Virus record (IMG/VR): IMGVR_UViG_2529292830_000009
DNA from: a virus
Taxonomy: Duplodnaviria; Heunggongvirae; Uroviricota; Caudoviricetes
Length of the DNA: 11,448 nucleotides
Direction: 5' to 3' (one strand)
Positions within the stretch are counted from its first letter, which is position 1, and the number at the start of each line of letters is the position of its first letter. Shown in pieces: positions 1 through 11,448 of the stretch. Position numbers and translations under genes: made by a program. Below the pieces are notes generated by a model, which did no database searches, was not told the origin of the DNA, and was given only the letters and a program-made list of their open reading frames with translations.

Positions 1-369
1 TATGACTGGATACAGCAACAGATGAAAACACTGTCGCGTCACTCAGATACGGCAAAAGCGTTCGCATACCTGCTGAAACAGTGGGATGCACTGAACGTGT
101 ACTGCAGTAATGGCTGGGTGGAAATCGACAACAACATCGCAGAGAACGCCTTACGGGGAGTGGCCGTAGGCCGGAAAAACTGGATGTTCGCGGGTTCCGA
201 CAGCGGTGGTGAACATGCGGCGGTGTTGTACTCGCTGATCGGCACATGCCGTCTGAACAATGTGGAGCCAGAAAAGTGGCTGCGTTACGTCATTGAACAT
301 ATCCAGGACTGGCCGGCAAACCGGGTACGCGATCTGTTGCCCTGGAAAGTTGATCTGAGCTCTCAGTAA
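1..369 (+). CDS. IS66-family transposase (TnpC-like), C-terminal fragment; 5' end lies outside the window
   Basis: Frame 1 is open from nt 1 (YDWIQQQ precedes the listed Met at 22) to TAA at 367..369. The translation (...[58 protein letters not shown]...LLPW...) matches the conserved C-terminal region of IS66-family transposases as I recall it. Confidence 0.85.
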
Positions 370-399
370 ATATCAATACGGTTCTGACGAGTCGCTTAC
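1..399 (+). mobile_element. Right-hand end of an IS66-family insertion sequence (partial; continues upstream of the window)
   Basis: Contains the C-terminal part of an IS66-type transposase (1..369) followed 30 nt later by ...GTCGCTTAC ending at 399. IS66-family termini characteristically read 5'-GTAAGCG- inward, and the reverse complement of 393..399 is GTAAGCG. The exact boundary is inferred from this motif; the left end and any target-site duplication lie outside the window. Confidence 0.7.
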
Positions 400-400
400 T

Positions 401-475
401 GTTAAAAAACAAAAACGGAAGAAAACAGTAACTGACGATGTTAACCCCTGGCTGACTTCCGGAGGATGGTTATGA
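401..475 (+). pseudogene. Probable 3' remnant of the upstream phage gene (likely terminase large subunit) cut off by the IS66 insertion
   Basis: Frame 2 is open from the IS end to TGA at 473..475 (VKKQKRKKTVTDDVNPWLTSGGWL*). That stop overlaps the W-like ATG at 472 in an ATGA arrangement, the same 4-nt overlap lambda uses between A (terminase large subunit) and W. The assignment is by position only; 24 residues are too few to recognise. Confidence 0.3.
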
Positions 476-684
476 ATCAGAATGATATTGAAGCCATGAT
501 TCAGCGTTATACGGAAGCTGAAATGGCGGTGCTGGACGGAAAATCCGTCACTTTTAATGGTCAGCAGATGACCATGGAAAACTTATCTGAGATCCGGCAG
601 GGGCGGCAGGAGTGGGAGCGCCGCCTTGCGGCTCTGATTACACGACGACGTGGGCATCCCGGGTACCGGCTGGCGAGGTTCTGA
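472..684 (+). CDS. W: Head-tail joining / head completion protein, lambda gpW-like
   Basis: Small ORF (about 70 aa) directly upstream of the portal gene, ending ...ITRRRGHPGYRLARF, which resembles the lambda gpW C-terminus ...QRRRGPAGFYV. GGAGG at 461..465 sits 6 nt before ATG 472. ATG 466 is an in-frame alternative but has no spacer after the SD. Stop TGA 682..684 overlaps the portal ATG. Confidence 0.65.
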   Translation: MNQNDIEAMIQRYTEAEMAVLDGKSVTFNGQQMTMENLSEIRQGRQEWERRLAALITRRRGHPGYRLARF

Positions 685-2159
685 TGGCAATTCTTGATGA
701 TGTGATTGGCGTTTTTTCACCAGGATGGAAAGCGGCAAGGCTGCGTTCCCGTGCGGTGATCCAGGCTTATGAGGCCGTAAAAACGACGCGGACACACAAA
801 GCCCGACGGGAGAACCGAACTGCCGACCAGTTAAGCCAGTACGGGGCCGTGTCGTTACGTGAGCAGGCCCGTTACCTTGATAACAACCACGATCTGGTTA
901 TTGGTGTATTTGACAAGCTGGAAGAACGGGTGGTGGGGAAAAACGGGATTATTGTCGAGCCACATCCGGTATTACGCAATGGGGCCATTGCCCGTGATCT
1001 GGCAGCGGAGATACGTACCCGATGGAGTGAATGGTCTGTCAGTCCGGAGGTCACCGGGCAGTTTACCCGTCCGATGCTGGAACGTCTGATGCTGCGTACC
1101 TGGCTGCGCGATGGTGAGGTGTTTGCCCAGATGGTTTCCGGGCGCATAAACAGCCTGACGCCTTCTGCCGGTGTTCATTTCTGGCTGGAGGCGCTCGAGC
1201 CGGACTTTATTCCCATGACCAGTGATGAGAGCAACAGGCTGAATCAGGGCGTGTTTGTTGATGACTGGGGGCGTCCCGAAAAATATCTGGTGTATAAAAG
1301 TCGTCCTGTATCCGGACGGCAGATGGAAACCAAAGAAGTGGATGCAGAGCGAATGCTGCATCTTAAATTTGTTCGCCGTCTGCACCAGATGCGCGGGACG
1401 TCTTTATTGTCCGGTGTGCTGATCCGCCTCAGCGCCCTGAAAGAGTATGAAGATTCTGAGCTGACTGCAGCAAGGGTCGCCGCTGCTCTGGGGATGTACA
1501 TCCGCAAAGGCGACGGACAGAGCTATGAAACGGATGGTAATTACAGCAAGGAGAATGAACGCGAGCTTACCATTCAGCCAGGCATTATTTACGACGATCT
1601 GAAACCCGGCGAAGAAATCGGAATGGTGAAGTCGGATCGCCCAAATCCTAACCTTGAAACTTTTCGTAATGCTCAGTTGCGTGCCGTGGCGGCGGGCAGT
1701 CGTCTGAGTTTTTCCAGTACAGCGCGCAACTATAACGGCACTTACAGCGCCCAGCGTCAGGAGCTGGTTGAATCCACTGATGGCTACCTGATCCTGCAGG
1801 ACTGGTTTATTGGTGCCGTCACCCGCCCGATGTATCGTGCCTGGCTGAAACAGGCTGTGGCATCCGGTGTTATCAGGCTACCCCGCGATCTTGACCGTTC
1901 TTCACTGTATACCGCGGTGTATTCCGGACCGGTGATGCCGTGGATTGATCCTGTTAAGGAGGCTGAGGCCTGGAAAATCCAGATTCGTGGTGGAGCGGCG
2001 ACAGAATCAGACTGGGTACGTGCAGGTGGTCGTAATCCGGATGATGTCAAACGTCGGCGCAAGGCCGAAATTGATGAAAACCGCAAGCTGGATCTGGTAT
2101 TTGATACCGATCCGGCCAGTGATAAAGGAGGCAGCAGTGCCGCAACGAAACGACAGTAG
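684..2159 (+). CDS. Phage portal protein
   Basis: A 491-aa ORF between the W-like gene and the prohead protease, the canonical portal position and size. ATG 684 is preceded by GAGG at 675..678 and overlaps the W stop (TGATG). The GTG at 612 in the ORF track would overlap W by 73 nt and is less plausible. Ends TAG 2157..2159. Confidence 0.8.
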   Translation: MAILDDVIGVFSPGWKAARLRSRAVIQAYEAVKTTRTHKARRENRTADQLSQYGAVSLREQARYLDNNHDLVIGVFDKLEERVVGKNGIIVEPHPVLRNGAIARDLAAEIRTRWSEWSVSPEVTGQFTRPMLERLMLRTWLRDGEVFAQMVSGRINSLTPSAGVHFWLEALEPDFIPMTSDESNRLNQGVFVDDWGRPEKYLVYKSRPVSGRQMETKEVDAERMLHLKFVRRLHQMRGTSLLSGVLIRLSALKEYEDSELTAARVAAALGMYIRKGDGQSYETDGNYSKENERELTIQPGIIYDDLKPGEEIGMVKSDRPNPNLETFRNAQLRAVAAGSRLSFSSTARNYNGTYSAQRQELVESTDGYLILQDWFIGAVTRPMYRAWLKQAVASGVIRLPRDLDRSSLYTAVYSGPVMPWIDPVKEAEAWKIQIRGGAATESDWVRAGGRNPDDVKRRRKAEIDENRKLDLVFDTDPASDKGGSSAATKRQ

Positions 2160-4164
2160 CCGCAGTACACCGACGACCAGTCCGAAGAATAATTCCTGGT
2201 TCAGGATGCAGGCTGGTCACCAGAGTGACGCGGATATTTATATTTATGACGAGATTGGTTTCTGGGGGGTTACAGCGAAGCAGTTTATCAGTGATCTGAA
2301 TGCACTGGGCGATATCACCCACATTAATCTCCATATCAATTCACCGGGTGGCGATGTCTTTGAAGGCATCGCCATTTTTAATGCGCTGAAAACACATGGT
2401 GCGTCCATTACCGTTTATGTCGACGGTGTGGCGGCATCAATGGCGTCGGTCATTGCGATGGTGGGAAACCCGGTCATTATGCCGGAAAACACCTTCATGA
2501 TGATTCATAAACCATTTGGCTTTACGGGCGGTGATGCGGAGGACATGCGCACCTATGCCGACCTGCTCGATAAAGTTGAGGCGGTTCTGTTACCCGCTTA
2601 TGCACAGAAAACCGGGAAAACCACCGATGAAATTGCTGCCATGCTGGCGGATGAGACCTGGATGTCCGGTGCCGAATGTCTGGCACATGGATTTGCTGAT
2701 CAGGTGACGCCAGCCGTTAAGGCAATGGCATGTATTCAGTCAAAACGTACAGAGGAATTTAAAAAGATGCCGGAATCCATTCGAAACATGATTACTCCGC
2801 CACGCAACAGTGCTCCACGCGTACAGGATAATGAACCTGCAGCTTCCCGGACGCCAGTGCAGGCAGCAGCACCCGTGGTGGATGAAAACAGTATCCGTGC
2901 GCAGGTACTGGCAGAGCAAAAAGCGCGTGTAAACGGTATTAATGATCTGTTTGCCATGTTTGGCGGGCGTTATCAGACGCTGCAGGCTCAGTGTCTTGCC
3001 GATCCTGAATGTTCGCTGGAGCAGGCCCGCGAAAAGCTGTTGAACGAGATGGGGCGCGAGTCCACGCCATCCAATAAAAATACCCCGGCTCATATTTATG
3101 CCGGTAACGGTAATTTTGTGGGGGACGGGATCCGCCAGGCGCTGATGGCGCGTGCCGGATTTGAAAAAACCGAACGTGATAATGTCTACAACGGGATGAC
3201 CCTGCGTGAATATGCCCGTATGTCACTGACTGAACGGGGTATTGGGGTTTCCAGTTATAACCCGATGCAGATGGTCGGTGCGGCGTTCACACACAGTACG
3301 TCTGACTTCGGTAATATTCTGCTGGATGTTGCGAACAAAGCCATTCTGCAGGGCTGGGAAGATGCCCCTGAAACCTATGAACAGTGGACGCGGAAAGGTC
3401 AGTTGTCTGATTTTAAAATTGCCCATCGTGTGGGTATGGGGGGCTTCAGTGCTCTGCGTCAGGTGCGTGAAGGGGCGGAATATAAATACGTCACCACCGG
3501 AGATAAACAGGCCACTATTGCACTGGCGACCTATGGCGAGCTGTTCAGTATCCCCCGTCAGGCCATTATCAATGATGATCTGAATATGCTGACCGATGTC
3601 CCGATGAAACTGGGCCGTGCGGCGAAATCCACTATTGCCGATCTGGTTTATGCCATTCTGACGTCTAACCCGAAAATCTCCACAGATAATGTAAGTCTGT
3701 TCGATAAAGCGAAACATGCAAACGTACTGGAGAGCGCTGCAATGGACGTGGCATCGCTGGATAAAGCCCGCCAGTTGATGCGCGTTCAGAAAGAGGGGGA
3801 GCGTCATCTGAATATTCGTCCTGCGTTCGTACTGGTACCGACGGCGATGGAGTCTGTTGCTAACCAGGTCATTCGCTCCTCAAGTGTCAAGGGGGCTGAC
3901 ATTAACGCCGGTATTATTAACCCGGTGAAAGATTTTGCGACCGTTATTGCAGAGCCTCGTCTTGATGATAACAGCCTGACCACCTTCTACCTGGCTGCGT
4001 CAAAAGGCTCCGATACGATTGAAGTGGCTTATCTCAACGGTGTGGATACGCCATATATTGATCAGATGGAGGGCTTCAGTGTGGATGGCGTGACAACGAA
4101 AGTGCGTATTGACGCCGGTGTCGCGCCAGTTGATCACCGCGGTCTGGTGAAATGTACGGCGTAA
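2137..4164 (+). CDS. Fused prohead protease (ClpP/S14-like) - scaffold-like linker - major capsid protein (HK97-type fold inferred)
   Basis: One uninterrupted frame. The N-terminal part (DADIYIYDEIGFWG...INSPGGDVFEGIAIFNALK...VDGVAASMASVIAMVGNPVIMPENTFMMIHKP) has the ClpP-like serine protease signature, including the likely nucleophile in AASMAS. The middle is a Q/A/E-rich helical stretch (SIRAQVLAEQKARVNGINDLF...LEQAREKLLNEMGRE). The C-terminal ~370 aa looks like a phage major capsid protein by size, composition and position. The start is taken as GTG 2137 because of a strong SD (AAAGGAGG at 2124..2131, 5-nt spacer); ATG 2206 (MQAGHQSDADIYIY...) is an alternative. The track's ATG 1945 start would overlap the portal by over 200 nt and is rejected. 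Confidence 0.75.
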   Translation: MPQRNDSSRSTPTTSPKNNSWFRMQAGHQSDADIYIYDEIGFWGVTAKQFISDLNALGDITHINLHINSPGGDVFEGIAIFNALKTHGASITVYVDGVAASMASVIAMVGNPVIMPENTFMMIHKPFGFTGGDAEDMRTYADLLDKVEAVLLPAYAQKTGKTTDEIAAMLADETWMSGAECLAHGFADQVTPAVKAMACIQSKRTEEFKKMPESIRNMITPPRNSAPRVQDNEPAASRTPVQAAAPVVDENSIRAQVLAEQKARVNGINDLFAMFGGRYQTLQAQCLADPECSLEQAREKLLNEMGRESTPSNKNTPAHIYAGNGNFVGDGIRQALMARAGFEKTERDNVYNGMTLREYARMSLTERGIGVSSYNPMQMVGAAFTHSTSDFGNILLDVANKAILQGWEDAPETYEQWTRKGQLSDFKIAHRVGMGGFSALRQVREGAEYKYVTTGDKQATIALATYGELFSIPRQAIINDDLNMLTDVPMKLGRAAKSTIADLVYAILTSNPKISTDNVSLFDKAKHANVLESAAMDVASLDKARQLMRVQKEGERHLNIRPAFVLVPTAMESVANQVIRSSSVKGADINAGIINPVKDFATVIAEPRLDDNSLTTFYLAASKGSDTIEVAYLNGVDTPYIDQMEGFSVDGVTTKVRIDAGVAPVDHRGLVKCTA

Positions 4165-4853: not shown

Positions 4854-5444
4854 ATGAAGGGGCTTGAGAATGCTATCCGCAATCTGAACAGCCTTGATAC
4901 CCGTATGGTGCCACAGGCCAGCGCATGGGCGATAAACCGTGTGGCACAGAAAGCGGTCTCGGTTGCCACCCGGCAGGTTGCCGGGAATACCGTTGCGGGA
5001 GATAACCAGGTGAAAGGGATCCCCCTGAAACTGGTACGTCAGCGTGTCCGGGTGTTTAAAGCCAGTCCGTCAGGAAAAATGACGGCCAGGATCCGCGTTA
5101 ACCGGGGCAATCTGCCCACCATCAAGCTGAACACAACACGGCGGCGTGCTGGTGAAGGATTGAGAGTGGGAAAATACTTTTTCCGGGGGGCATTTATTCA
5201 GCAACTGGCGAATGGCCGCTGGCATGTTCTGAGGCGTCTTCCTGAAGCGCGTTTTGCAACAGGGCATGACCATCAGGGCAGGCCAAGAAAAAATCGTCTT
5301 CCTGTGGAGGTAGTGAAAATCCCGCTGTCCGGACCGCTGACACAGGCATTTGAAGATGCCCGCGACCGCATCATTGCTGCGGAAATGCCGAAACAGCTGG
5401 GGTATGCACTGAAACAACAACTGAGGTTATGGCTGACCCGATGA
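4854..5444 (+). CDS. Z: Tail completion protein, lambda gpZ homolog
   Basis: 196 aa against lambda Z at 192 aa. Clear shared motifs: KGLE.A..NL, AINRVA, VNRG.LP.IKL, GAFIQQL.NGRWHV, VVKIP...PLT.AF, LGYAL..QLR. AAGAGG at 4842..4847 sits 6 nt before ATG 4854. Confidence 0.9.
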   Translation: MKGLENAIRNLNSLDTRMVPQASAWAINRVAQKAVSVATRQVAGNTVAGDNQVKGIPLKLVRQRVRVFKASPSGKMTARIRVNRGNLPTIKLNTTRRRAGEGLRVGKYFFRGAFIQQLANGRWHVLRRLPEARFATGHDHQGRPRKNRLPVEVVKIPLSGPLTQAFEDARDRIIAAEMPKQLGYALKQQLRLWLTR

Positions 5445-5842
5445 ACCGACATACACAAATCCGCCAGGTCGTACTGGCACGCCTTCGGAAACAGTGTGGA
5501 GACAGCGCCACGTTTTTTGACGGGCTTCCGGCATTTGTTGATGCGCAGGAACTGCCTGCCGTGGCGGTGTGGCTGAGTGATGCTCAGTACACCGGAAAAA
5601 TGACGGATGAAGATGACTGGCAGGCTGTTCTGCATATTGCTGTCTTCATCCGGGCACAGGCACCGGATTCAGAGCTGGATATGTGGATGGAGAGCACCAT
5701 TTTCCCGGCCCTGAATGATATACCGGCACTTTCCGGACTCATCGACACCCTGATCCCACTCGGTTTTAACTATCAACGTGATAATGAGATGGCCACCTGG
5801 GCGATGGCGGAAATCACGTACCAGATCACGTACACGAATTAA
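5441..5842 (+). CDS. U: Tail terminator protein, lambda gpU homolog
   Basis: MNRHTQIRQVVLARL...ATFFDG.PAFVD..ELPAVAVWLSDAQYTG...WQA.LHI.VF..AQ.PDSELD.WMES.IFPALNDIPALS...ITYQITY aligns along its whole length with lambda U (MKHTELRAAVLDAL...ATFFDGRPAVFDEADFPAVAVYL...). Start chosen at ATG 5441 (ATGA overlap with the Z stop) to match lambda's N-terminus; ATG 5429 is an in-frame alternative. Confidence 0.9.
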   Translation: MNRHTQIRQVVLARLRKQCGDSATFFDGLPAFVDAQELPAVAVWLSDAQYTGKMTDEDDWQAVLHIAVFIRAQAPDSELDMWMESTIFPALNDIPALSGLIDTLIPLGFNYQRDNEMATWAMAEITYQITYTN

Positions 5843-6656: not shown

Positions 6657-7043
6657 ATGTTTCTGAAACAGGGCACGTTTAATTATGAAAAACAGTCCGT
6701 GGTGCTCAGTGAGCTGTCCGGGCTGCAGAGAATTGAATATCTGGCGTTTGTTCAGCAGCGAACGGCAAAGTTTGATGCCGGGGAGGGAGAACTGCCGGAG
6801 GCTGAACGACAGATTGCTTTTCTGCGGATGGGGATGGATATCAATGCCTGGCTGGTTTCCCGCTCACTGTGGAATGCGGATCAGTCTAAGGATGTAGAGA
6901 CGCTTTGCGCATCCGTTATTACAACATGGTCGTATGATGCCCTGGGTGCGGGGGCGGAGATGGTTCTGTCGCTGAGCGGTATGGGGGCCATTGATAATGC
7001 CGGGGATGATGAGCATGAGGCGCTGACGCCGGAAAAGTCCTGA
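6657..7043 (+). CDS. G: Tail assembly chaperone, lambda gpG homolog
   Basis: MFLKQGTFNYEKQSVVLSELSGLQRIEYLAF... against lambda G MFLKTESFEHNGVTVTLSELSALQRIEHLAL...; also LSLSGM against lambda YRLSGM near the C-terminus. GGAG at 6647..6650 sits 6 nt before ATG 6657; ATG 6654 is the adjacent in-frame alternative. Stop TGA 7041..7043. Confidence 0.85.
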   Translation: MFLKQGTFNYEKQSVVLSELSGLQRIEYLAFVQQRTAKFDAGEGELPEAERQIAFLRMGMDINAWLVSRSLWNADQSKDVETLCASVITTWSYDALGAGAEMVLSLSGMGAIDNAGDDEHEALTPEKS

Positions 7044-7381
7044 CGCGGGAAATGCAGTTTGTCATGCGGCTTGCCCGGGAGTTCCGGCGGGCAGACTGGC
7101 GGCGGATGCTGTCGGAAATGTCGGCCACTGAGCTTGGTGAGTGGGGCGATTATTTCCGGATGCAGAGCTTCAGTGATGTGTGGATGGATGCGCAGTTTGC
7201 CTCGCTGAAGGCATTGATCGTGAGAATGGTGTCCGGCAGCAGTGATGCTGCGGTGGCTGATTTCAGCCTTTTACCGGAAGAGAACGGGATACCGGAGCGA
7301 ACGGACGAAGAACTGATGCATCTTGGAGAAGGTATTTCCGGAGGTGTGCGTTATGGACCAGATAGCCAACCTGGTCATTGA
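7019..7381 (+). CDS. T: gpT-like -1 frame extension, expressed as a G-T fusion by programmed frameshift (full product about 6657..7381 with a shift near 7031..7037)
   Basis: The -1 frame relative to G opens at 7019, after in-frame stops at 6992, 6995, 7007, 7010 and 7016, and runs to TGA 7379..7381. It encodes ...REFRRADWRRMLSEMSATELGEWGDYF...GEGISGGVRYGPD, matching the lambda T segment (REFHRPDWRRMLAEMS...GGVRYGPDG) as I recall it. No convincing independent RBS precedes the internal ATG at 7052. Confidence 0.75.
   Translation, partial: GADAGKVLTREMQFVMRLAREFRRADWRRMLSEMSATELGEWGDYFRMQSFSDVWMDAQFASLKALIVRMVSGSSDAAVADFSLLPEENGIPERTDEELMHLGEGISGGVRYGPDSQPGH
7031..7037 (+). promoter_or_regulatory. 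Candidate -1 ribosomal slippery site for the G-T frameshift
   Basis: G GAA AAG in the G frame, the only A-rich slippery run in the 22-nt window (7019..7040) where both frames are open. It differs by one base from the lambda heptamer G GGA AAG. The A-site shift AAG to AAA is canonical; the P-site shift GAA to GGA is not a perfect re-pairing. Confidence 0.45.
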
Positions 7382-10300
7382 TTTGGGGATTGATGCGGCA
7401 GAGTTTAAAAATGAAATTCCCCGTATCAAAAACCTTCTGAATGGTGCCGCCAGCGATGCAGAACGGTCTTCTGCCCGTATGCAGCGTTTTATGGAGCGTC
7501 AGACTCAGGCCGCCCGGCAGACAACGCAGGCGGCTTCTTCGGCTGCAACAGCCGCCTCCGTCCATGCGCAGACGGTGGAGAAGAACGCACAGGCTCATGA
7601 ACGCATGGCCCGCGAGGTGGAGAAAACCCGCCAGCGCATGGAGGCGCTGAGCCAGAAAATGCGCGATGAACAGGCGCAGGCCATGGCTCTGGCGGAGGCT
7701 CAGGATAAAGCGGCTGCTGCGTTTTATCGTCAGATTGACAGTGTGAAACAGGCCAGTGCGGGGCTGCAGGAATTACAGCGTATTCAGCAGCAGATCCGAC
7801 AGGCCAGAAACAGTGGCGGGATTGGTCAGCAGGATTATCTGGCGCTGATTTCTGAGGTTACGGCGAAAACCCGTGTTCTTACACAGGCTGAGGAAGAGGC
7901 TACCCGACAGAAAGTGGCGTTTATCCGTCAGCTTAAAGAGCAGGCAACCCGCCAGAATCTTTCTTCTTCTGAGTTGCTTCGTGCTAAGGCTGCCCAGCTG
8001 GGGGTAAGCAGTGCTGCAGAAGTGTATATCCGCAAAATGGAGCAGGCAGGAAAAGCCACGCATTCGCAGGGTCTGAAAAGTGCAGCGGCCCGCCAGGAGA
8101 TAGGCGTTCTGATAGGTGAACTGGCTCGCGGCAATTTAGGTGCGCTGAGGGGATCCGGGATAACGCTGGCTAACCGTGCCGGATGGATAGACACACTGAT
8201 GTCACCGAAAGGCATGATGCTGGGCGGGGTTATTGGCGGTATTGCCGCGGCCGTCTATGGTCTGGGTAAAGCCTGGTATGACGGTCAGAAGGAGGGGGAA
8301 GAATTTAACCGCCAGTTGTCGCTGACGGGGCATTATGCCGGAGTCACTGCCGGGCAGCTGTGGACGCTCAGTCGTGCTATTTCCGGGAATGGTATCACGC
8401 AACATGCTGCAGCCGGTGCGCTGGCTCAGGTGGTGGGGAGGGGTGCATTTCGTGGAAACGATATCGGTATGGTGGCGAGAGCTGCCGCACAGATGGAGCG
8501 ATCGGTTGGCCAGTCGGTCAGCGATACCATAAGTCAGTTTAAGCGGCTGAAGGATGATCCTGTAAATGCCGCGAAGGCTCTGGACAATGAGCTGCATTTT
8601 CTTACTGCCACTCAGCTTGAGCAGATACGCGTCCTTGGGGAACAGGGGCGGTCCAGTGATGCGGCACGGATAGCCATGTCTGCACTGGCAGAGGAAACCG
8701 GTCGGCGTACTGCGGATATTGATAATAACCTCAATGCGCTGGGCAGTACGCTGAAGTATCTGTCTGATTTATGGAGTCGTTTCTGGGATGCGGCCATGAA
8801 TATTGGTCGTGAAGACTCGCTGGATGAACAGATTTCCGCTTTACAGGAGAAAGTGTCGCGGGCGAAAAGACTCCCCTGGACGGCATCATCTTCTCAGGTT
8901 GAGTACGATCAGCAGCGTCTTAACGAGCTTCAGGAGAAAAAACGCCAGAAGGATTTGCAGGATGCAAAAGAGCAGGCAGAGCGGAATTATCAGGAGCAAC
9001 AGAAACGCCGTAATGCTGAAAATGCTGCACTGAACCGGATGAATGAAACGGAAGCAGCACGACATCAGCGTGAAATTGCGCGTATTAATGCCATGCAGTA
9101 CGCCGATCAGGCTGTCAGGGATGCGGCGATACAACGTGAAAATGAACGTTACGAGAAAGCCCTGGCATCCGGTAAGAAAAAAACACGCGAAACCCGTAAT
9201 GATGAGGCCACCCGGTTATTGCTGCAGTACAGTCAGCAACAGGCACAGGTGGAAGGACAGATTGCTGCTGCAAGACAGTCAGCAGGCATTGCCACTGACA
9301 GGATGACAGAAGCGCATAAACAGCTTCTGGCTCTGCAGCAGCGCATCAGCGATCTGGACGGGAAAAAACTGACGGCAGATGAAAAGAGTGTGCTGGCCCG
9401 TAAAGATGAACTGATTCAGGCACTGACGCTGCTGGATGTAAAACAGCAGGAGCTTCAGAAACAGACGGCACTCAACGATCTGAAGAAAAAAACAATTCAG
9501 CTGACCAGTCAACTGGCTGAAGAAGAGCGCGCTCAGCGCCAGCAACATGACCTGGATATCGCCACGGTGGGTATGGGTGATCAGCAGCGGCAGCGATATC
9601 AGGTACAACTGAGTCTTCGCCAGAAATACCAGCAACAGCTGGAGCAGTTGAGGCGGGATAGTGAGCAGAAAGGAACATATAACACGGATGACTACAGAAA
9701 GGCCGAGCAGGCGCTGACGGAGAGCCTGAACCGACAACTGAATGAGAATCGCCGTTATTGGCAACAGCTTGAAATTGCTCAGGGTGACTGGAAAAACGGA
9801 GTCCTGCGTGCACTCCAGAATGTCACTGAGAAAGCGGATAACACAGCCGGGACAGTGGAACAGTTGTTCACGTCTGCGTTCAGTAGCATGAGTGACTGGC
9901 TGGCGACATTCTGTACTACAGGCAAACTCAATTTCAAATCCTTCACCTCTTCTGTGCTGTCAGATATGTCCAGAATCATGGCTCAGATAGCTTTAATGAA
10001 AGCGGTAAAAGGTATTGCTTCCGCGCTGCCTTTTGATTTTGTAGCCAATGCTGATGGCGGTGTTTATCAGTCGGCTGATTTGAGTCGCTACAGTGGCACG
10101 GTGGTTAACCGTCCGACGTTTTTTGCTTTTGCAAAAGGCGCGGGTGTGATGGGGGAAGCTGGACCTGAAGCCATTCTGCCACTGCGTCGTGGTGCTGACG
10201 GTAAGCTGGGGGTTGTGGCGGATATTGGTGGTTCAGGTATGGCGATGTTTGCCCCGCAGTACAACATCGAGATCAATAACGATGGCACGAACGGGCAGAT

Positions 10301-10738: not shown

Positions 10739-10747
10739 GAGGCTCTG

Positions 10748-11446
10748 ATGCAGGATATTCCACAGGAAACACATCATGAGACGACACGCCTCACTCAGTC
10801 AGCCCAGGTGGTGCTCTGGGAAATCGATCTGACAGAGGTCGGTGGTGAACGTTATTTTTTCTGTAATGAGCAGAACGAAAAAGGTGAGCCGGTTACCTGG
10901 CAGGGGCGGCAGTATCAGGCATACCCCATTCAGGGGACAGGATTTGAACTGAACGGCAAGGGCAGTGCTGCCCGTCCGACACTGACGGTTTCTAACCTGC
11001 ACGGTATGGTCACCGGGATGGCGGAAGATCTGCAGAGTCTGGTCGGCGGAACGGTGGTCCGGCGTAAGGTTTACGCCCGTTTTCTGGATGCGGTGAACTT
11101 CGTCAACGGAAACAGCGACGCCGATCCGGAGCAGGAGGTGATTAGCCGCTGGCGCATCGAGCAGTGCAGCGAACTGAGCGCGGTCAGTGCCTCCTTTGTA
11201 CTGTCCACGCCGACTGAAACGGATGGTGCCGTTTTTCCGGGGCGCATCATGCTGGCTAATACCTGCACCTGGACCTATCGCGGTGATGAGTGCGGTTATA
11301 ACGGTCCGGCGGTCGCGGATGAATATGACCAGCCGACGTCCGATATCACGAAGGATAAATGCAGCAAATGCCTGAGTGGCTGTAAGTTTCGCAATAATGT
11401 CGGCAACTTTGGCGGCTTCCTTTCCATTAACAAACTTTCGCAGTAA
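10748..11446 (+). CDS. L: Minor tail protein, lambda gpL homolog
   Basis: 232 aa, the same length as lambda L. Carries the Cys-rich C-terminal region (CTWTYRGDECGY...CSKCLSGCKFRNN) typical of gpL-family proteins. AGGAGG at 10737..10742 sits 5 nt before ATG 10748; ends TAA 11444..11446, two bases before the window end. Confidence 0.88.
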   Translation: MQDIPQETHHETTRLTQSAQVVLWEIDLTEVGGERYFFCNEQNEKGEPVTWQGRQYQAYPIQGTGFELNGKGSAARPTLTVSNLHGMVTGMAEDLQSLVGGTVVRRKVYARFLDAVNFVNGNSDADPEQEVISRWRIEQCSELSAVSASFVLSTPTETDGAVFPGRIMLANTCTWTYRGDECGYNGPAVADEYDQPTSDITKDKCSKCLSGCKFRNNVGNFGGFLSINKLSQ

Positions 11447-11448
11447 AT

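Follow-up and report, generated by a model that had tools for sequence, protein, structure and literature searches.

Results

An ISCro1 copy lies within the terminase region of a lambdoid prophage

The window (the whole stretch of DNA analysed, 11,448 nt) comes from an E. coli prophage, lambdoid and of the mEp460/cdtI type, whose integration site is flanked by potB and potC; besides a complete lambda-like head/tail module, it has genes for integrase, excisionase, immunity, replication and lysis. Its first 399 nt are the right-hand end of an intact 2,699-bp ISCro1, an element of the IS66 family, and beyond this end lie a short remnant of the terminase large subunit gene (terL), a small gene in the position of lambda W, the portal gene and the other late genes (Table 1). 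As most of the insertion sequence (IS) lies upstream of the window, we used the same locus in the complete genome of strain NCCP 13717 (L001), in which position 1 of the window corresponds to position 9001 and the two are colinear onward. The uninterrupted prophage of strain 602354 (L002) provided the empty site, and the structural proteins of the window have the same RefSeq accessions as those of this prophage.

Table 1. Features of the interrupted terL locus in the window and in NCCP 13717 (L001)
Feature	Sequence	Position	Strand	Basis or remark
TerS-like DUF1441 protein	L001	4133-4660		annotation, NCCP 13717
Truncated TerL, "phage terminase large subunit family protein"	L001	4669-6717		annotation
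tnpA	L001	6754-7431		annotation, NCCP 13717
tnpB	L001	7431-7778		annotation, NCCP 13717
ISCro1-family transposase (tnpC)	L001	7798-9369		annotation, NCCP 13717
Pseudogene "terminase gpA endonuclease subunit" (84 nt)	L001	9392-9475		RefSeq; incomplete, missing N-terminus
DUF6148 protein, then portal and other late genes	L001	9472 onward		annotation
ISCro1, right part	window	1..399	+	IS positions 2301..2699; remainder upstream of the window
tnpC 3' end (DDE transposase)	window	1..369	+	codons 402..523 and TAA stop, by translation
Right terminal inverted repeat (IRR)	window	374..399	+	ends ...CGCTTAC
Right copy of the 8-bp target-site duplication, TGTTAAAA	window	400..407	+	left copy at L001 6693..6700
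terL 3' remnant	window	401..475	+	24 codons and TGA; no start of its own
GGAGGA Shine-Dalgarno of the W-like gene	window	461..466	+	within the last Gly-Gly codons of terL
W-position head-tail adaptor gene, 70 aa	window	472..684	+	phrog_118 "head-tail adaptor", E 8.5e-37
Lambda-family portal gene, intact	window	684..2159	+	Pfam Phage_portal_2, E 4.4e-82

Several other genes of this prophage deserve a mention. Three prophage-borne tRNA genes (Ile, Arg, Arg; L001 1064..1313) separate a DNA methyltransferase gene from the lysis cassette, an arrangement familiar from Stx-type lambdoid prophages. The head gene at window 2137..4164 is annotated as a 675-aa fusion of a ClpP-like prohead protease with the major capsid protein, and its first 23 nt are shared with the end of the portal gene. 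In the tail region (6657..7381), the ORF of the G-like tail chaperone ends at 7043 and a T-like ORF is annotated at 7052..7381; the latter is in the -1 frame, is open back across the G stop, and an A-rich stretch, CCGGAAAAGTCC, is found at 7029..7040. This arrangement agrees with the -1 frameshift (G/GT) that is conserved in lambda-like tails, with a putative slippery heptamer that is not the canonical GGGAAAG.

The element is a complete IS66-family insertion sequence

The first-pass annotation, made from the letters of the window, had read its beginning as an IS66-type transposase with an inverted-repeat terminus at 399, and profile searches agree with this reading. Frame 1 encodes the last 122 residues of TnpC and its TAA stop. 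The whole 523-aa protein matched Pfam DDE_Tnp_IS66 over positions 1-283 of 284 (E 3.9e-103), with further matches to zf-IS66, LZ_Tnp_IS66 and DDE_Tnp_IS66_C, and also the NCBIfam model transpos_IS66 (E 1e-143; 479 bits vs a cutoff of 180). The tnpA and tnpB products matched IS66_access_TnpA (295.8 bits vs a cutoff of 150) and IS66_TnpB (128.9 bits vs a cutoff of 50), respectively. The order is tnpA, tnpB, tnpC in one orientation, and all three genes are full-length and score above the NCBIfam equivalog cutoffs. The name ISCro1 is that of the RefSeq/PGAP annotation of this copy and of 100% identical copies in other E. coli genomes; 1,493 of 5,426 complete genomes have the element at full length, and 8 places match it in NCCP 13717.

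We set the ends of ISCro1 by comparing the filled with the empty site and with other copies. The left terminus, GTAACCGGCTC..., and the right one, ...GAGTCGCTTAC, at window 399, have the form GTAA...TTAC and are identical, down to the last base, in ISCro1 copies at other places, while the similarity of the window to uninterrupted prophages begins at 399/400. Elements of the IS66 family have imperfect terminal inverted repeats beginning 5'-GTAA. When the reverse complement of the right repeat of our copy, GTAAGCGACTCGTCAGAACCGTATTG, is set against its left end, GTAACCGGCTCATTTAAACCGTCTGG, 18 of 26 positions agree, and the repeats were missed by an automatic inverted-repeat search of ISCro1 with a 7-nt seed, being too imperfect for it. 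Duplications of 8 bp also flank other copies of the element (CGTAAAAA, GACTGATG and AAATAAGT); one further copy has flanks without a matching duplication, presumably after recombination between IS copies. No clear target consensus for ISCro1 emerged among these three duplications and the TGTTAAAA of our locus.

Removal of the element restores an intact terL

ISCro1 spans L001 6701..9399 and points in the direction of the late operon. Its left end was found 2,699 bp upstream of the right one, preceded by the same TGTTAAAA that follows the right end, as the first-pass annotation had predicted. With a slash marking the border of the element, the left junction reads ...CCACGCC TGTTAAAA / GTAACCGGCTCATTTAAACC... 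and the right junction ...GACGAGTCGCTTAC / TGTTAAAA AACAAAAACGG..., while the empty site of 602354 reads ...CCACGCC TGTTAAAA AACAAAAACGG..., with one copy of TGTTAAAA. When ISCro1 and one copy of TGTTAAAA were removed in silico, a continuous terL of 699 codons was obtained, which runs into window 401..475 and differs from the 602354 gene by 0 mismatches in 2,100 nt; over the whole IS-free locus there were 4 mismatches in 10,802 nt. The insertion point lies 66 bases before the end of terL.

The restored 699-aa protein is clearly a terminase large subunit. It matched GpA_ATPase (PF05876) at residues 40-303 (E 4.9e-81) and GpA_nuclease (PF20454) at residues 325-643 (E 1.8e-86), and in BLASTP residues 48-633 shared 24% identity with lambda gpA (E 8e-22). 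The gene order TerS, TerL, adaptor, portal is also present, the TerS-like gene upstream of terL belonging to DUF1441 and phrog_141. Results therefore showed that a complete ISCro1 transposed into the 3' end of a gpA-family terL of a lambdoid prophage. The earlier proposal that the IS sits inside the 3' end of the terminase gene thus holds, as in two complete E. coli genomes the left end adjoins a gpA-family terL, and the reading frame becomes continuous with 401..475 in a single 699-codon ORF. None of the contrary outcomes that it had named (a left flank of non-phage or intergenic DNA, the lack of a continuous frame, the absence of a terminal repeat or of a duplication) was found.

The part of terL left beyond the element is the tail of 24 codons that had been noticed in frame 2: window 401..472 translates as VKKQKRKKTVTDDVNPWLTSGGWL, followed by the TGA at 473..475. 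No ATG, GTG or TTG is present in this frame between the upstream stop (TGA 356..358) and position 401, so the remnant, without a start codon of its own, is not independently translatable and represents an orphaned gene end. The first-pass annotation was right on the 24-codon remnant; the number of residues actually lost from TerL is 22 and not 24, since the duplicated 8 bp cover the first two codons of the remnant.

The ATG of the W-like gene (472..474) overlaps the TGA of the remnant as ATGA, again as had been described, and the resemblance to the terminase/W junction of lambda was verified, since lambda A (711..2636) and W (2633..2839) overlap in the same way. The same 4-nt overlap between terL and the adaptor gene was found in six diverged relatives. 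The GGAGGA of the W-like gene sits 5 nt before its ATG, and a comparable purine-rich stretch is found in relatives. This gene is annotated as DUF6148 or as head-tail adaptor Ad1. Its product gave no BLASTP alignment with lambda gpW and no match to Pfam gpW, and its sole Pfam match, DUF6148, reached 19.3 bits, below the cutoff of 27. We therefore rejected an identification as gpW by sequence, and W-like is here a positional and functional label, given for the phrog_118 match and the W position. The portal protein and its counterpart in the uninterrupted 602354 prophage share one sequence (WP_001460789.1).

The truncated TerL keeps both enzymatic domains and loses a conserved tail

The interrupted terL runs 5 codons into the left inverted repeat before a stop. 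Whereas the intact protein of 699 aa ends ...EPVSTPVK-KQKRKKTVTDDVNPWLTSGGWL, the truncated one, of 682 aa, ends ...EPVSTPVK-SNRLI, thus losing the last 22 residues (KQKRKKTVTDDVNPWLTSGGWL) and gaining 5 (SNRLI). The break, at residue 677, lies beyond both Pfam domains, so that the ATPase and nuclease domains are kept and the lost portion, 3% of TerL, is wholly outside them.

We aligned the C-terminal ~100 residues with those of mEp043, VT1-Sakai, Gifsy-2, Chris1 (Citrobacter), Pmp14 (Pasteurella) and yong2 (Hafnia), with identities of 38-66% over this part. The layout consists of a conserved end of the nuclease domain, a hypervariable linker rich in prolines and charges, a conserved Trp and a terminal GGW(L/V). 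Relatives from Escherichia, Salmonella, Citrobacter, Pasteurella and Hafnia retain this W...GGW(L/V) pattern, and a Trp 7-12 residues upstream is present in all seven relatives. The lost tail begins, after the proline-rich linker, with a basic run, KKQKRKK. Part of the conservation of GGWL may be at the nucleotide level, as the last codons, GGA GGN TGG NTR TGA, include the Shine-Dalgarno and the ATG/GTG start of the next gene. The upstream Trp, together with the use of four codons for the terminal Leu among relatives (TTA, TTG, CTG and CTA), argues for a probable constraint at the protein level as well. No similarity was found between this tail and the last ~32 residues of lambda gpA, the BLASTP alignment ending at residue 633, and in a MAFFT alignment the lambda gpA tail had no counterpart to the GGWL terminus; with no alignable similarity, homology of the two tails is not claimed.

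The insertion is found in few genomes and the prophage is decaying

We searched window 1..1200 against 5,426 complete E. coli genomes by megablast. Only two records cover all 1,200 nt: NZ_CP115984.1 (strain NCCP 13717, human, Korea), with 100% identity, and NZ_LR883006.1 (isolate L5_E1779_ETEC, hereafter E1779), with 99.9%. Thousands of records match from 399 onward only, and their annotation reads "terminase large subunit", "hypothetical protein", "portal". Compared with NCCP 13717, the window has 3 substitutions in 10,200 nt, and compared with E1779 it has 35 differences over the full 11,448 nt; as it differs from both carriers, the window is a third, closely related sequence with the insertion. 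The comparison with uninterrupted relatives that had been suggested in the first-pass annotation could be made with 1,892 genomes and with free phages of the mEp460/cdtI group. The uninterrupted terL/adaptor junction is present in those 1,892 of the 5,426 genomes, and the insertion in 2 of 5,426, plus the source of the window. This TerL subfamily occurs in ~35% of complete E. coli genomes. From these counts, and from the 4 mismatches in 10,802 nt to 602354, the insertion is recent and confined to one lineage.

The view of a decaying element is in line with additional pseudogenes of the same prophage in both insertion-bearing genomes. In NCCP 13717, rusA is frameshifted, the tail-fibre gene is partial and the Q-family gene has 270 nt vs 516 nt in 602354. 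In E1779, the U-like minor tail gene (window 5441..5842, L005 17441..17842) has an internal stop; both the window and NCCP 13717 have an intact copy, and E1779 departs from the window at positions 5465, 5476 and 5566. For one of the carriers, the stop in the U-like gene is an additional decay event that arose independently. We did not retain a "frameshifted" cro-like gene as carrier-specific decay, as it is flagged in 602354 too.

E1779 carries ISCro1 at the same site and with the same duplication as NCCP 13717. The two copies (L001 6701..9399 and L005 9701..12399) differ at 23 positions, 19 of them within IS positions 1166-1719, and their flanks are nearly identical. Such clustering suggests that, once the shared insertion had taken place, gene conversion between IS copies may have followed. 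A second cluster concerns the far end of the window, where 30 of the 35 differences from E1779 are found from 10744 onward (10744..11448); 25 of these fall in the 232-codon ORF at 10748..11446, the gene of "minor tail protein L", for which NCCP 13717 and E1779 have different protein accessions. This points to a putative boundary of a recombination mosaic near 10.7 kb.

Polarity on the late operon would be modest or absent

We asked what the insertion would do to the genes behind it. The IS lies between terL and all the head and tail genes, in their orientation, and the ATGA coupling to terL is gone, as the remnant has no start codon; the main effect could then be polarity, with the W-like gene, the portal gene and the late operon blocked. 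Conversely, read-through from tnpC could drive them constitutively, considering that the stretch from the tnpC stop (369) to the W-like start (472) has no terminator except the weak hairpin of the inverted repeat. A consensus scan of L001 6500..9800 found 0 sigma-70-like promoters vs 1.9 expected from shuffles, and 6 terminator-like hairpins on both strands vs 3.4 expected; the hairpins on the + strand are weak, with 5-6 bp, and one is the right inverted repeat itself. Nothing in these scans is meaningfully above the shuffled expectation, and the sequence lends no support to the polar or promoter effects raised in the first-pass annotation. Moreover, loss of coupling need not silence the W-like gene, since the consensus GGAGGA ahead of its ATG is a strong Shine-Dalgarno of its own. 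In lambdoid phages late transcription is made resistant to terminators by the Q antiterminator, and in this prophage the place that is usual for Q, after rusA and ahead of the lysis genes, is occupied by a gene. We infer that polarity is modest or none: with no convincing + strand terminator in the IS and with Q-antiterminated late transcription, the downstream structural genes would probably still be expressed after induction. A main effect through polarity or read-through is thus unlikely.

Loss of the tail would probably prevent packaging

By analogy with better-known terminases, the lost tail is probably the portal-docking element of TerL, with the portal as its presumed partner. In the lambda mutant Aam42, removal of only the last 5 residues of gpA leaves cos nicking and the formation of Complex I intact, abolishes docking to the prohead portal and drastically reduces the phage yield (PMC4856287); the prohead-binding domain of gpA is attributed there to Sippy & Feiss 1992 and Yeo & Feiss 1995. 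Likewise, P22 TerL without residues 483-499, a basic, proline-rich tail, loses binding to the procapsid portal (PMC5290284), and similar findings for T3 and lambda are among those cited in that paper. The docking role of our tail rests on analogy, since it is not alignable with that of lambda gpA. Following this analogy, the truncated TerL would still recognize and cut cos and would fail to mount on proheads, and the induced prophage would yield proheads and tails and no filled heads, i.e., it would be packaging-dead. A loss of packaging is therefore likely on these grounds, and we give it the same weight as the docking role itself; the first-pass view that the prophage cannot package DNA is in this sense well founded.

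On the contrary, the insertion might be functionally near-neutral, with the 682-aa TerL still docking and packaging and the conservation of the tail explained by the ribosome binding site and start of the W-like gene. Both catalytic domains are in fact intact, with Pfam matches that end at 643 vs a break at 677, the Shine-Dalgarno and the start codon of the W-like gene do fall in the last five terL codons, and the tail has no sequence similarity to that of lambda. The conservation, however, reaches beyond the ribosome binding site, to the upstream Trp and to a terminal Leu maintained through four synonymous codons, and losing 5 to 17 C-terminal residues abolishes portal binding in lambda and P22. 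In addition, the insertion has not spread past one lineage, and in both carriers other genes of the prophage are becoming pseudogenes too, which is the expected course when selection for function is gone. A near-neutral insertion is thus unlikely.

A second, independent ISCro1 insertion lies close by

Another strain, 24AR0142 from New Zealand (NZ_CP195362.1), has an independent ISCro1 in a related prophage (L004 3693..6407). This copy interrupts the 5' part of the portal gene, at the equivalent of window 775..782 and with CGTAAAAA as duplication, 375 bp downstream of the insertion in terL and in the same orientation. Both targets, TGTTAAAA of terL and CGTAAAAA of the portal gene, are A-rich, and the insertions are in different prophage variants and strains. 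Two such nearby insertions could reflect a local hotspot or coincidence. That the terL-adaptor-portal junction is a preferred landing zone of ISCro1, or that packaging-dead variants are positively selected, seems to us quite improbable; if selection were true, a lysogen would keep the structural, lysis and cargo genes and shed the production of infectious particles. Finally, a repeat-induced misjoin of an ISCro1 copy and the prophage during assembly, conceivable for an element with so many copies in NCCP 13717 and because IS-mediated misassembly is common, can be practically dismissed, since three independent sequences (NCCP 13717, E1779 and the window, the last being distinct from the other two) carry both junctions or the right one, and since a perfect 8-bp duplication with exact restoration of the ORF is the signature of a genuine transposition.

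Discussion

Taken as a whole, the locus is best explained by transposition of ISCro1 truncating terL, with loss of a tail that likely docks the enzyme to the portal and with a prophage that would be packaging-dead as a consequence, an explanation in which we have high confidence. This is ordinary prophage decay: a known and abundant IS, a known gene and a known type of prophage, already annotated in RefSeq. Its value is that of a clean, fully reconstructible example of a prophage likely disabled by a single IS insertion. In RefSeq the 682-aa truncated TerL (WP_024169811.1, ending SNRLI) carries no pseudogene flag and only the 84-nt remnant is flagged; therefore, tools that evaluate prophage completeness probably score the element as intact. 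The insertion also provides a natural C-terminal truncation for asking whether the W...GGWL tail is the portal-docking element of a widespread TerL subfamily.

Compared with other members of the IS66 family (IS66, IS679, ISEc8), the ISCro1 described here is an ordinary copy, sharing with them the order tnpA-tnpB-tnpC, a length of ~2.7 kb, GTAA ends and an 8-bp duplication; we found no difference, and the location alone is specific. The closest phages, mEp460, cdtI, Tritos, Ayreon and HannyBb, have 97.7-99% nucleotide identity over window 400..1600 and the same gene order. Unlike this prophage, they are functional phages and their terL is uninterrupted.

The nearest functional parallel is lambda Aam42, in which, as in the truncated TerL, a protein of the gpA family has lost its extreme C-terminus alone and kept the nuclease and ATPase domains, so that the same phenotype, cos cutting without portal docking, would be expected here too. 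The two cases differ in that Aam42 is a nonsense codon, while here an IS insertion removed 22 residues and added 5 foreign ones, and in that our TerL ends with a basic run followed by W...GGWL and lambda gpA with an unrelated, acidic ...LSGEDE.

Lambdoid prophages disrupted by IS elements are familiar from pathogenic E. coli, the defective Sp prophages of O157:H7 Sakai being an example, and our prophage resembles them in its piecemeal inactivation by IS insertions, frameshifts and deletions. What distinguishes it from the Sakai Sp prophages is the specific gene, site and IS, in a prophage of the mEp460/cdtI type at potB/potC of ETEC-like strains.
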